64,000 nt of DNA, taken from the NCBI GenBank assembly GCA_951406725.2, contig OX597818.1, positions 115,320,001 to 115,384,000 on the forward strand, written 5' to 3'. This DNA is from Octopus vulgaris. Taxonomy: Eukaryota. A program made the position numbers and the translations under genes. The notes beneath the pieces are model-generated. The model was given only the letters and a program-made list of their open reading frames with translations, was not told the origin of the DNA and ran no database searches. Shown one piece after another: positions 9,701 through 12,700 of this stretch (its first letter is position 1; every line of letters starts with the position of its first letter).

Positions 9701-12700
9701 CAGAGGCAAGGAATCGAAGCGCAATATGTGCAGCTGCTCAGAGAGGCAAATTCCGGATGCACCACCGACATAGCTCAACTGTCATCACCCATACGAGTGC
9801 CGGTCGAGAAGGGAGTGAAGCAAGGAGATACAATCTCCCCAAAACTTTTTCACTGCATGTCTCGAACAGATCATCAGAGGCATCGAATGGCAAGGTGGTG
9901 TCAACATCAATGGCGAGCTCCACACTCACCTCCGTTTCGCTGACGACATCGTACTCATCGCTGAAAACATGGATCAGCTTCAGACCATATATATATATAT
10001 ATATATATATATATATACAAAGGGATTTGTATGATTGTGTATAGAAGAATATATTACTCAAAGGAATTCCAACTCTGTCTGTTTTTTATATTTTATTTAT
10101 ATTCTTGTAATATTAATATAGGATATAGAATATATAATAAGAAAGAAATGAAATGAAGTATTGATTGTCTTACTGAACAAATGGAATATTGAAGATTAAA
10201 TATTAAATGTCTATTCTCATTGAACTAGCAAATTCTTTCTTGTATTTAAGCATTCATCAGGTTCAGATTGTGACAGGAACGCCTCGACTGTGAATCAATA
10301 CTTCATTTCATTTCTTTCTTACTATATATTCCATATTCTATATCCTATATTAATATTATAAGAATATAAATAAAACCTAAAAAACAGACAGAGCTGGAAT
10401 TCCTCTGAGTAATATATATATATATATATATATATATATATATATATATATATATATATATATATATAATTTGGGTGAATAAATGTCATTGTTCAAAGAG
10501 TAATTCTCCACGTTATTAGTTTGAATTAAGCTTTGTAGTGGTAGTAGTAAATCTTGTATTATACACACACACACATATATATATATATATATATATATAT
10601 ATATATAAACTGTATATATATACTAAGCAATAAAGGGTTTAGCAACGAATTGCCTTACCACAGACCGAATTTAGAAATAGCAGTCAAAGAGTTATAGCTA
10701 TTTCTTCTACTAAAAAGGGAGATCTCAGTAAAAAACACAGCAATTGGAAGGCAGACACAAACAGGTAAGAGAGAATGAATTGACGGCAATCTATCATACA
10801 ATTTTAAGTTATCTACGGACGCACGTTTCGAAATCAAGTTTTTAGGAAAGCATGAGAATTAAATATTAGATAATTCTACGTTACCCAAACTTCTTTTCTC
10901 TTCAGCGTAGAATACTATAATCATAAGTGATTATATATTGAATTTTGAGATACTAGAAGGCACCAACTCAACTCAGTATCAGAGCGAGCTAGAATCCGCA
11001 ACTAGTATCACCAAACTCAACGTGTGAATGAAAGGATTGTGTCACCAGCCCCTTCCCACCCGCGTGTAGCCAAAACAAGATGCTATGGTCATCTACTGAG
11101 ATAAAATATGGTTATCCGTAATAATGAAGGGTGAAATTAATTAATTTGGAATAATTATCAATTACACCAAGTAGTCTTCGGCATGTAAAAGCCTCATTCG
11201 AGGAAAATTTAAGTAATACTAAGCAATAAAGGGTTTAGCAACGAATTGCCTTACCACAGACCGAATTTAGAAATAGCAGTCAAAGAGTTATAGCAATTCG
11301 TTGCTAAACCCTTTATTGCTTAGTATTACTTAAATTTTCCTCGAATGAGGCTTTTACATGCCGAAGACTACTTGGTGTAATTGATAATTATTCCAAATTA
11401 ATTAATTTCACCCTTCATTATTACGGATAACCATATTTTATCTCAGTAGATGACCATAGCATCTTGTTTTGGCTACACGCGGGTGGGAAGGGCTGGTGAC
11501 ACAATCCTTTCATTCACACGTTGAGTTTGGTGATACTAGTTGCGGATTCTAGCTCGCTCTGATACTGAGTTGAGTTGGTGCCTTCTAGTATCTCAAAATT
11601 CAATATATAATCACTTATGATTATAGTATTCTACGCTGAAGAGAAAAGAAGTTTGGGTAACGTAGAATTATCTAATATTTAATTCTCATGCTTTCCTAAA
11701 AACTTGATTTCGAAACGTGCGTCCGTAGATAACTTAAAATTGTATGATAGATTGCCGTCAATTCATTCTCTCTTACCTGTTTGTGTCTGCCTTCCAATCC
11801 CTTTATATATATATATATATATATATATATATATATATATATATAAACTGTATATATATATATATATATATATAAATATATATATATATATATATATATA
11901 TATATATATATATATATATATATATATATATATATATATATATATAGAGAGAGAGAGAGAGAGAGAGAGGGGGAAGAGAGAGAGAAAGAGAGAGAGTCAT
12001 CTCATAAATAATGCGGATTTTTCAATTGCATGAGCTAAAAGTTGTATGGGGGCAGGATAAACTACCTGCATCAACTTGCTATAAAAGCAGGTAGTAATTT
12101 TACCATGTACTTATTCTTAGTGCAAATTTTAAAGAGTGCAGTTCGATTTTAACATTTATTTTTCCAAAGCTATAATGGAAGTGACAAAAGAGCATATTTT
12201 GATTTATGAGTTCAATAAAGGCAACAACGCAACGGGAAGTGCGAGGAATATTAATGCAGTATGTGGAAATCGAACAATAAGCGTAAGTAGAAATTCCGAG
12301 CCGGAAACTACAGCCTTGTCCTGGAAGATCTTGCAAACCCTAGGGGAAAAATCCCATCGCAAGTGTTGAGGAACTTGCAGAGAAGCTTGAATTTGGTCAT
12401 TCAACCATTCATCGACACCTGCATACCATCGGAAAAGACAGCAAATTGGGTCAATGGGTTCCTCACAAACTTCCCGAGTCTAATCACGCGCAGAGAGTGA
12501 ATGAGTGCTCTTCTTTGCTTTCACGTCTCAGGAATGAACTTTTTTGGAACCGAATAGTGACTGGAGACAAGAATAGGTTCTCTATAAAAATTACAAGCGC
12601 CGAAGACAGTGGGCAGAGAAAGGAGAAACGCCGGTACCCCAGGCTAAAGGCCTTCTCCCACGTAAGATGTTGTTATCTATTTAGTGGAATATGAAAGGTT

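Follow-up and report, generated by a model that had tools for sequence, protein, structure and literature searches.

An intron of a melatonin-receptor-like gene in octopus contains a near-perfect palindrome of 1.2 kb, one copy of a much-repeated non-coding element. Judged by its sequence organization, this element behaves as a non-autonomous Penelope-like element (PLE), and it is not an autonomous one, as it has no ORF. Probably, the non-coding 596-bp hammerhead element was copied into a (TA)n array by PLE proteins acting in trans, for which a linear RNA template would be enough. The palindrome lies in a stretch of 64,000 nucleotides of Octopus vulgaris DNA, which was analysed as a whole and is referred to as the window. 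A preliminary description had proposed a young, non-autonomous, TA-targeting hammerhead retro-element, a view that is upheld by the layout of the insertion, the lack of an ORF, the TA target and the near-identical arms.

Layout of the insertion, its target site and its host intron

The features of the insertion, of its host gene and of a second family copy are listed by position.

5835..6770, minus strand: host downstream coding exon, 7tm_1
10576..10621, plus strand: putative left target-site copy, (TA)16, AACTG and 9 nt of TA; its last 2 nt are common with the element end
10620..11294, minus strand: main body, 675 nt or 1.13 units of the 596-bp non-coding unit
10620..10698, minus strand: 79-bp direct repeat that closes the main body at its 3′ end, a pseudo-LTR-like redundancy
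10699..11294, minus strand: single non-redundant unit, 596 nt, GC 0.359
10743..11249, minus strand: left arm of the palindrome, within the main body, 507 bp
10812..10911, minus strand: type I hammerhead of the main body, on the host pre-mRNA strand; predicted cut after C10818
11216..11294, minus strand: 79-bp direct repeat that opens the main body at its 5′ end, identical to 10620..10698
11250..11292, no strand: inter-arm spacer, 43 nt
11293..11798, plus strand: inverted 5′-truncated copy, which is the right arm, head-to-head with the main body and with its 3′ end toward the right TA array
11630..11729, plus strand: type I hammerhead of the inverted copy; predicted cut after C11723
11799..11803, plus strand: right-junction filler of about 5 nt, unlike both the template continuation and the TA array
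11804..11859, plus strand: putative right target-site copy, (TA)21, AACTG and TA; its right boundary is ambiguous within the microsatellite
15848..16183, minus strand: host upstream coding exon, melatonin-receptor-like class A GPCR, TM1-TM2 region
27704..28142, minus strand: family copy 2, with its (TA)n start at the same base (3′ end) as copy 1 and 82-91% identical to copy 1

The hammerhead-sense strand of the main body is the minus strand, with the 3′ end at the TA array. The two direct repeats are exact over 79 bp at a spacing of 596, in agreement with the 596-bp non-coding unit and the 79-bp terminal direct repeat described before. The arms and their 43-nt spacer were recovered as well: the arms are each other's reverse complements, and their sole difference, previously noted as a single indel, is one C in a C-run near 11050 (506 of 507 bp). 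Main body and inverted copy overlap by 2 nt at 11293-11294. When the 596-nt unit is read as a circle, its longest stop-to-stop frame spans 67 aa, and an ORF with a telomerase-like RT and a GIY-YIG endonuclease is absent from it. The predicted fold of the sense (ribozyme) strand has a z of -4.9, against -1.0 for the antisense strand (100 shuffles each). Matches of miRNA and sRNA models at the palindrome centre were discarded, being far under their cut-offs and attributable to hairpin shape alone, and a scan for bacterial promoters and terminators, which is unsuited to animal DNA, returned 2 sites where 6.1 were expected.

The insertion was said to interrupt a GPCR intron, and mapping of the flanking exons confirms this. 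On the minus strand, residues 1-112 of an Octopus bimaculoides protein (P0001) correspond to 16183-15848 and residues 112-422 to 6770-5838. The downstream exon is 93% identical to an O. bimaculoides protein named melatonin receptor type 1B-B, and the two exons correspond to successive segments of the solved MT2 receptor (residues 39-100 and 112-323). With a GT at 15849 and an AG ending at 6770, the exons join in frame. The exon mapping and the in-frame splice ends therefore place the element in an octopus gene intron of 9.1 kb, where its main body has the same sense as the host pre-mRNA.

A motif recurring within (TA)n on both flanks had been likened to a target-site duplication (as AAACTG), and this likeness holds. 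Of the 59 TA-array interruptions listed for the window, two have AACTG; they flank the element at 10607 and 11846 and share the same orientation. From these flanking sequences, a target-site duplication of about 46-56 bp in (TA)n around copy 1 is probable. That AACTG could be part of the element itself is ruled out by copy 2, which lacks it. Both copies in the window begin at (TA)n, and several loose ends of family contigs run into TA arrays.

The repeat family and its hammerhead motif

Copy 2 has the layout of copy 1 with other breakpoints. Its direct repeats (110 bp, identical) have a period of 260, and its inverted copy at 28073-28142 comprises 70 bp, of which 69 are identical, with a junction overlap of 1 nt. 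Its right end is without a TA array, and a target duplication was not discerned there. The CUGANGA half of its hammerhead has been lost through an internal deletion; if this deletion preceded insertion, the ribozyme would be unneeded for mobilisation.

The family extends to public sequencing runs. More than half of the words of the unit occur in 20 of the 24 runs listed, which come from 9 studies and carry 3 organism labels. On 10699-11330, 1512, 734 and 1497 contigs were placed from three presumed DNA runs and 22 from one presumed RNA run, where the DNA or RNA type of the runs is a guess (including that of X2 as RNA) and contig depth does not stand for copy number. The many distinct contigs do imply many family copies. 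The tandem joint 11294->10699 is present in three of four runs, among others in a contig of 551 nt with 3 differences. Run X2 (record 27) adds a third head-to-head form anchored in TA, in which (TA)n is followed by 11113-11201 and then by 30 nt resembling the reverse complement of about 10724-10754, with 27 of 31 columns matching when compared by eye. The inverted piece of this record is absent from its own main body. RNA editing was considered for the A>G and T>C differences in X2 and rejected, as these mostly recur in DNA runs or come from a single diverged contig.

A metagenome scan with a 21-nt hammerhead motif did not reveal an autonomous PLE sharing the sequence of the unit; it gave one locus (L001), which was dropped as a relative because only that motif is in common. 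At 390-410 of this metagenome contig, the same 21-nt 3′ half of a hammerhead is present with a palindromic helix III, either by chance or as a separate ribozyme.

A complete type I hammerhead core had been reported on each strand of the insertion. Full-length matches to the Rfam type I model (RF00163, model positions 1-45 of 45) at 11630-11729 on the plus strand and 10812-10911 on the minus strand corroborate this, as does a match of a custom hammerhead descriptor on each strand. Over both strands of the 64 kb the descriptor matches exactly twice, and all of 30 dinucleotide shuffles were free of matches. Thus the covariance model proposed as a check on 11630-11729 was matched over its full length, but its score at both hammerheads (21.2 bits, E 0.036) stays under the gathering score of 34, and a scan of the whole window with Rfam at gathering level gave 0 matches. 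The likely cause of this low score is the long insert in stem II. A pattern for hammerheads with a short stem II has 0 matches within the window. The motif at 11630-11729 consists of a 6-bp stem I, the core CUGAAGA, a 69-nt stem II domain and GAAA; the base of stem II has 4 bp with a G-C closing pair.

Helix III (11715-11722) is an 8-nt palindrome that closes a loop of only 2 nt. Family-wide, the octamer (place 10822) forms a perfect palindrome at 63%, 79% and 94% of the depth of the presumed DNA runs X1, X12 and X14, respectively. Its predicted self-duplex of 8 bp has an energy of -9.8 kcal/mol in the family-majority form and -8.8 kcal/mol at this locus, where it includes two G-U pairs. A short palindromic helix III is a trait of metazoan and PLE hammerheads, of which dimers cleave and monomers do so poorly (PMC4209133). 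Because helix III is such a short palindrome, the octopus hammerhead is likely of the dimer-dependent kind, and a second sense copy would probably be needed. Even in the absence of an antisense arm, little cleavage is expected of a single metazoan hammerhead whose helix III is this short. With one sense copy per strand, the locus at 10620-11798 is predicted not to cut itself.

Variation in the motif was followed among the 40 of 60 variant rows listed for the family. In stem I, 10812 and 10911 have changed together in one instance, and an A-U pair has become G-U in another. Position N7 of the hammerhead is variable among family contigs. Within the core, U4 -> C (place 10904) accounts for 1-29% of depth among the rows listed and shares one X2 record with the compensated stem I, so the core would be weakened in part of the family. 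Two variants of the stem II extension disrupt predicted pairs unless their partners have also changed, again among the rows listed. Besides this, the stem II domain has at 11659-11667 another stretch that, judged by eye, could pair with the 5′ strand of stem I (about 11627-11635); this alternative pairing is a possible trap for the core.

Route of insertion and RNA template

Both 3′ ends of copy 1 face outward into TA and the 5′ ends meet head-to-head, an arrangement that could arise as follows. A PLE endonuclease would nick the TA array on either strand, at points some 50 bp from each other, and the resulting 3′ ends would each act as primer for reverse transcription that starts inside the element RNA, at 10620 and at 10743. 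Growing toward each other, the two cDNAs would be joined head-to-head via the 2-nt overlap, while fill-in would duplicate the (TA)n target. The template would have to exceed one unit, and a linear transcript of 1.2 units would be enough. Purified anole PLE protein is able to cleave and extend both strands of AT-rich DNA and to initiate internally (PMC11167929).

The preliminary description named a circular or multimeric RNA of about 596 nt as a possible source of the insertion. The template would indeed be longer than one unit, but a circle is unneeded, as a linear transcript of 1.2 units fits all ends observed. The ends of the two copies in the window, of record 27 and of the contig loose ends all fall within about 1.23 units of a start at 10620, and the starts of two inverted pieces, near 10754-10759, are at most about 5 nt apart. 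It is because of these two properties that a linear template suffices. The geometry of twin priming on a single multimer (offsets of 44 and 42 nt) was also considered as an indication, but a uniform null gives it a joint probability of about 0.05, which is too weak.

The explanation that differs from insertion from a linear transcript solely in its template is that of a circular-RNA retrozyme, in which dimeric hammerheads would cut tandem loci, giving a 596-nt circle that undergoes rolling reverse transcription. This is possible, if doubtful. In its favour, the cDNA spans 1.13 units and runs across the site of the predicted cut, the circular fold of the unit is strongly self-paired with a z of -5.6 (40 shuffles), and retrozymes of mussel, coral and axolotl are known to form circles (PMC7229834). 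However, the linear unit is predicted to fold equally well (-155 vs -154.7 kcal/mol for the circle), the ends remain within about 1.23 units, and the inverted pieces start where a fixed 5′ end would place them. A locus with two sense hammerheads was not encountered, although contigs are unable to reveal one. Moreover, uncleaved RNA is the dominant insertion substrate of the anole PLE (PMC11167929), and dimers from Xenopus cleaved in vitro in one of nine cases (Li, Clavereau & Pollet 2026 preprint, 10.64898/2026.07.22.740005).

Alternatively, a single nascent cDNA may have folded at 11294 and copied itself back to 10743. Self-priming of this kind has been proposed for PLE palindromes (PMC3846280), and it would account for the short loop and for arms that are identical but for one base, although identical arms are equally expected from two sister RNAs. 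The junction overlaps amount to no more than 2 nt in copy 1 and 1 nt in copy 2. As the inverted piece of record 27 lies outside its own main body, two priming events are favoured over such a snap-back, a conclusion drawn from one short contig. On balance, snap-back is rather unlikely.

A further elaboration of insertion from a linear transcript of 1.2 units holds that the inverted repeats stem from two RNA templates that dimerised via helix III and were primed from both target strands. This idea is speculative, and we regard it as improbable. If it were true, the hammerhead would mainly be a dimerisation signal for integration, the young, high-copy octopus family would be a large set of natural insertion products, and it would by itself supply perfect dsRNA for hyper-editing in cephalopods.

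That the palindrome is a fold-back artefact of the assembly is very hard to credit. Its arms are near-perfect, inserts of this type trouble assemblies (PMC8557442), and the fold junction 11294/11295 is absent among the 32 of 3799 contig pieces listed, with no strand-change row in the joint table. Against this, the mirror symmetry ends at 11798 and is followed by a target copy in direct, not mirrored, orientation, the host exons are in correct order and frame on both sides, and copy 2 and record 27 have the same layout with other breakpoints.

Fate in the host transcript and relation to known elements

In the predicted fold of the minus-strand insertion, the arms form a 506-bp duplex, and all 6 of the 6 core positions checked pair with the antisense arm. 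It had been suggested that the palindrome silences the ribozyme. In both directions the antisense arm is indeed transcribed first, and the core is paired in the predicted fold, but there is no sign of a special design. Silencing needs none, because one sense copy per strand cannot dimerise in cis. The predicted silencing by the antisense arm is thus likely a by-product. Similarly, the long hairpin in the receptor pre-mRNA is probably a by-product without a selected role and an ADAR substrate; use of the palindrome dsRNA by ADAR or Dicer is plausible. On the minus strand, the arms comprise 324 adenosines.

A more far-reaching proposal would make the palindrome a selected regulatory device, keeping the ribozyme silent and providing dsRNA through which the receptor pre-mRNA is edited or dampened. 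Besides the predicted duplex that takes up all checked core positions, it could draw on the hyper-editing rate of octopus, which is among the highest and tied to long dsRNA, and on the heavy editing of Penelope in lizard (PMC5625713). Nevertheless, with 1 base of difference between its arms the insert is very young, its layout is that of PLEs in general, and next to no activity is expected from a single hammerhead of this type. The same intron also holds three other fold-backs, and about 42-44% of the Xenopus retrozyme copies are intronic (10.64898/2026.07.22.740005). A regulatory device is therefore highly improbable, and the single locus at 10620-11798 is probably neutral.

The palindrome is also not special when compared to known PLEs, which weakens the earlier emphasis on it. 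A typical PLE insertion consists of a partial tandem with an adjacent inverted 5′-truncated copy, has hammerheads in its pseudo-LTRs and shows a bias for microsatellites (PMC8557442). The PLEs of A. vaga have the same form of insertion, mostly head-to-head (PMC3846280). In Schistosoma, paired hammerheads are found on opposite strands, about 100-700 bp apart (PMC4209133); at the octopus locus, the hammerheads on opposite strands are 718 bp apart. With PLEs that carry an endonuclease (EN+; Penelope/Poseidon, Neptune, Nematis, Hydra), the octopus element has in common the pseudo-LTR partial tandem, the head-to-head inverted 5′-truncated copy, a hammerhead with a palindromic helix III, an AT-rich or (TA)n target and an opposite-strand pair of hammerheads about 700 bp apart. 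It differs from them in that it has no RT or GIY-YIG ORF, its whole period is 596 bp, and no clear tail of 30-40 bp is present, the 3′ ends being offset by 123 nt in copy 1 and by 68 nt in copy 2. Furthermore, the putative target duplication of about 46-56 bp is longer than the 8-10 bp of the A. vaga PLEs. Non-autonomous Chlamys elements such as MRC1 (PMC8557442) are likewise non-coding PLE derivatives with pseudo-LTRs and head-to-tail insertions, but they are from green algae and belong to a clade mostly without canonical hammerheads, and homology to an autonomous partner was shown there.

The second known group to which the octopus element is similar is that of the non-LTR retrozymes, which have been defined in animals (Cervera & de la Pena 2020, PMC7229834) and which have been argued to be non-autonomous PLE derivatives (Li, Clavereau & Pollet 2026 preprint, 10.64898/2026.07.22.740005). 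Like metazoan non-LTR retrozymes, the octopus unit is non-coding, low in GC (0.36) and strongly self-paired, with one type I hammerhead and many copies; a long target duplication, co-occurrence with PLEs and frequent intronic copies are also in common. With 596 nt, the unit is larger than the tested invertebrate retrozymes of about 170-450 nt (PMC7229834), although it falls in the range of 51-972 nt in the preprint. Its 69-nt stem II domain is larger than in the retrozymes of PMC7229834, and in the accessible text of that paper the word 'inverted' has 0 occurrences, in contrast to the inverted head-to-head copy in octopus. With 1.13 units the locus is of the monomer type, and it is not 'active' under the rule of the preprint, which asks for a tandem with two complete hammerheads. 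The larger unit, the long stem II and the long target duplication are modest departures from known retrozymes and PLEs. The octopus element is likely an ordinary representative of a known element type, the non-autonomous PLE or non-LTR retrozyme.

The PLEs of O. vulgaris have been catalogued as 190 families, occupying 6.83% of the genome and including 31 that were recently active (PMC13282606). In the accessible text of this 2026 repeat paper, the word 'ribozyme' has 0 occurrences, and no description of the octopus hammerhead family was found among the papers listed on octopus or cephalopod hammerheads, octopus Penelope elements and mollusc or metazoan retrozymes. The family may already be present, unnamed, in repeat libraries. 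Our analysis extends the hammerhead retrozymes, or non-autonomous PLEs, to octopus and ties a retrozyme-like unit to a full PLE insertion footprint in an invertebrate, a matter that the 2026 preprint lists as unexamined. As the formation of the tandem and inverted structures of PLEs is still described as open (PMC8557442), this short and abundant family is a good data set for how they arise.

The window contains a number of other repeats. Within the receptor intron, a TA-flanked fold-back insert at 10049-10411 has arms of about 116 nt that are about 90% alike; it is present as a single copy in the window, and no hammerhead was found in it. It adjoins an RT remnant at 9599-9986 (RVT_1 at 9599-9940), which is unrelated to the element. 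The frame 12344-12694 in the same intron is, by likeness, presumably a mariner transposase remnant, with 0 Pfam matches. Imperfect palindromes (66-81%) occur at 14351-14552 and 15486-15559, both in the receptor intron, and at 5307-5564, 59803-60044 and 18-101. At 27205-27458, 250 bp from copy 2, a palindromic insert that is self-complementary for 89% over 254 nt has a MITE-like look and a single copy in the window. The translations at 36388-38151, 35296-35742 and 41403-42245 look like remnants of LINE-like RT and endonuclease, the part at 41403-42242 having 0 Pfam matches. Lastly, dispersed SINE-like repeats, some in 184-bp tandem, are found at 21535-22529, 42775-43163, 56597-56836 and other positions.
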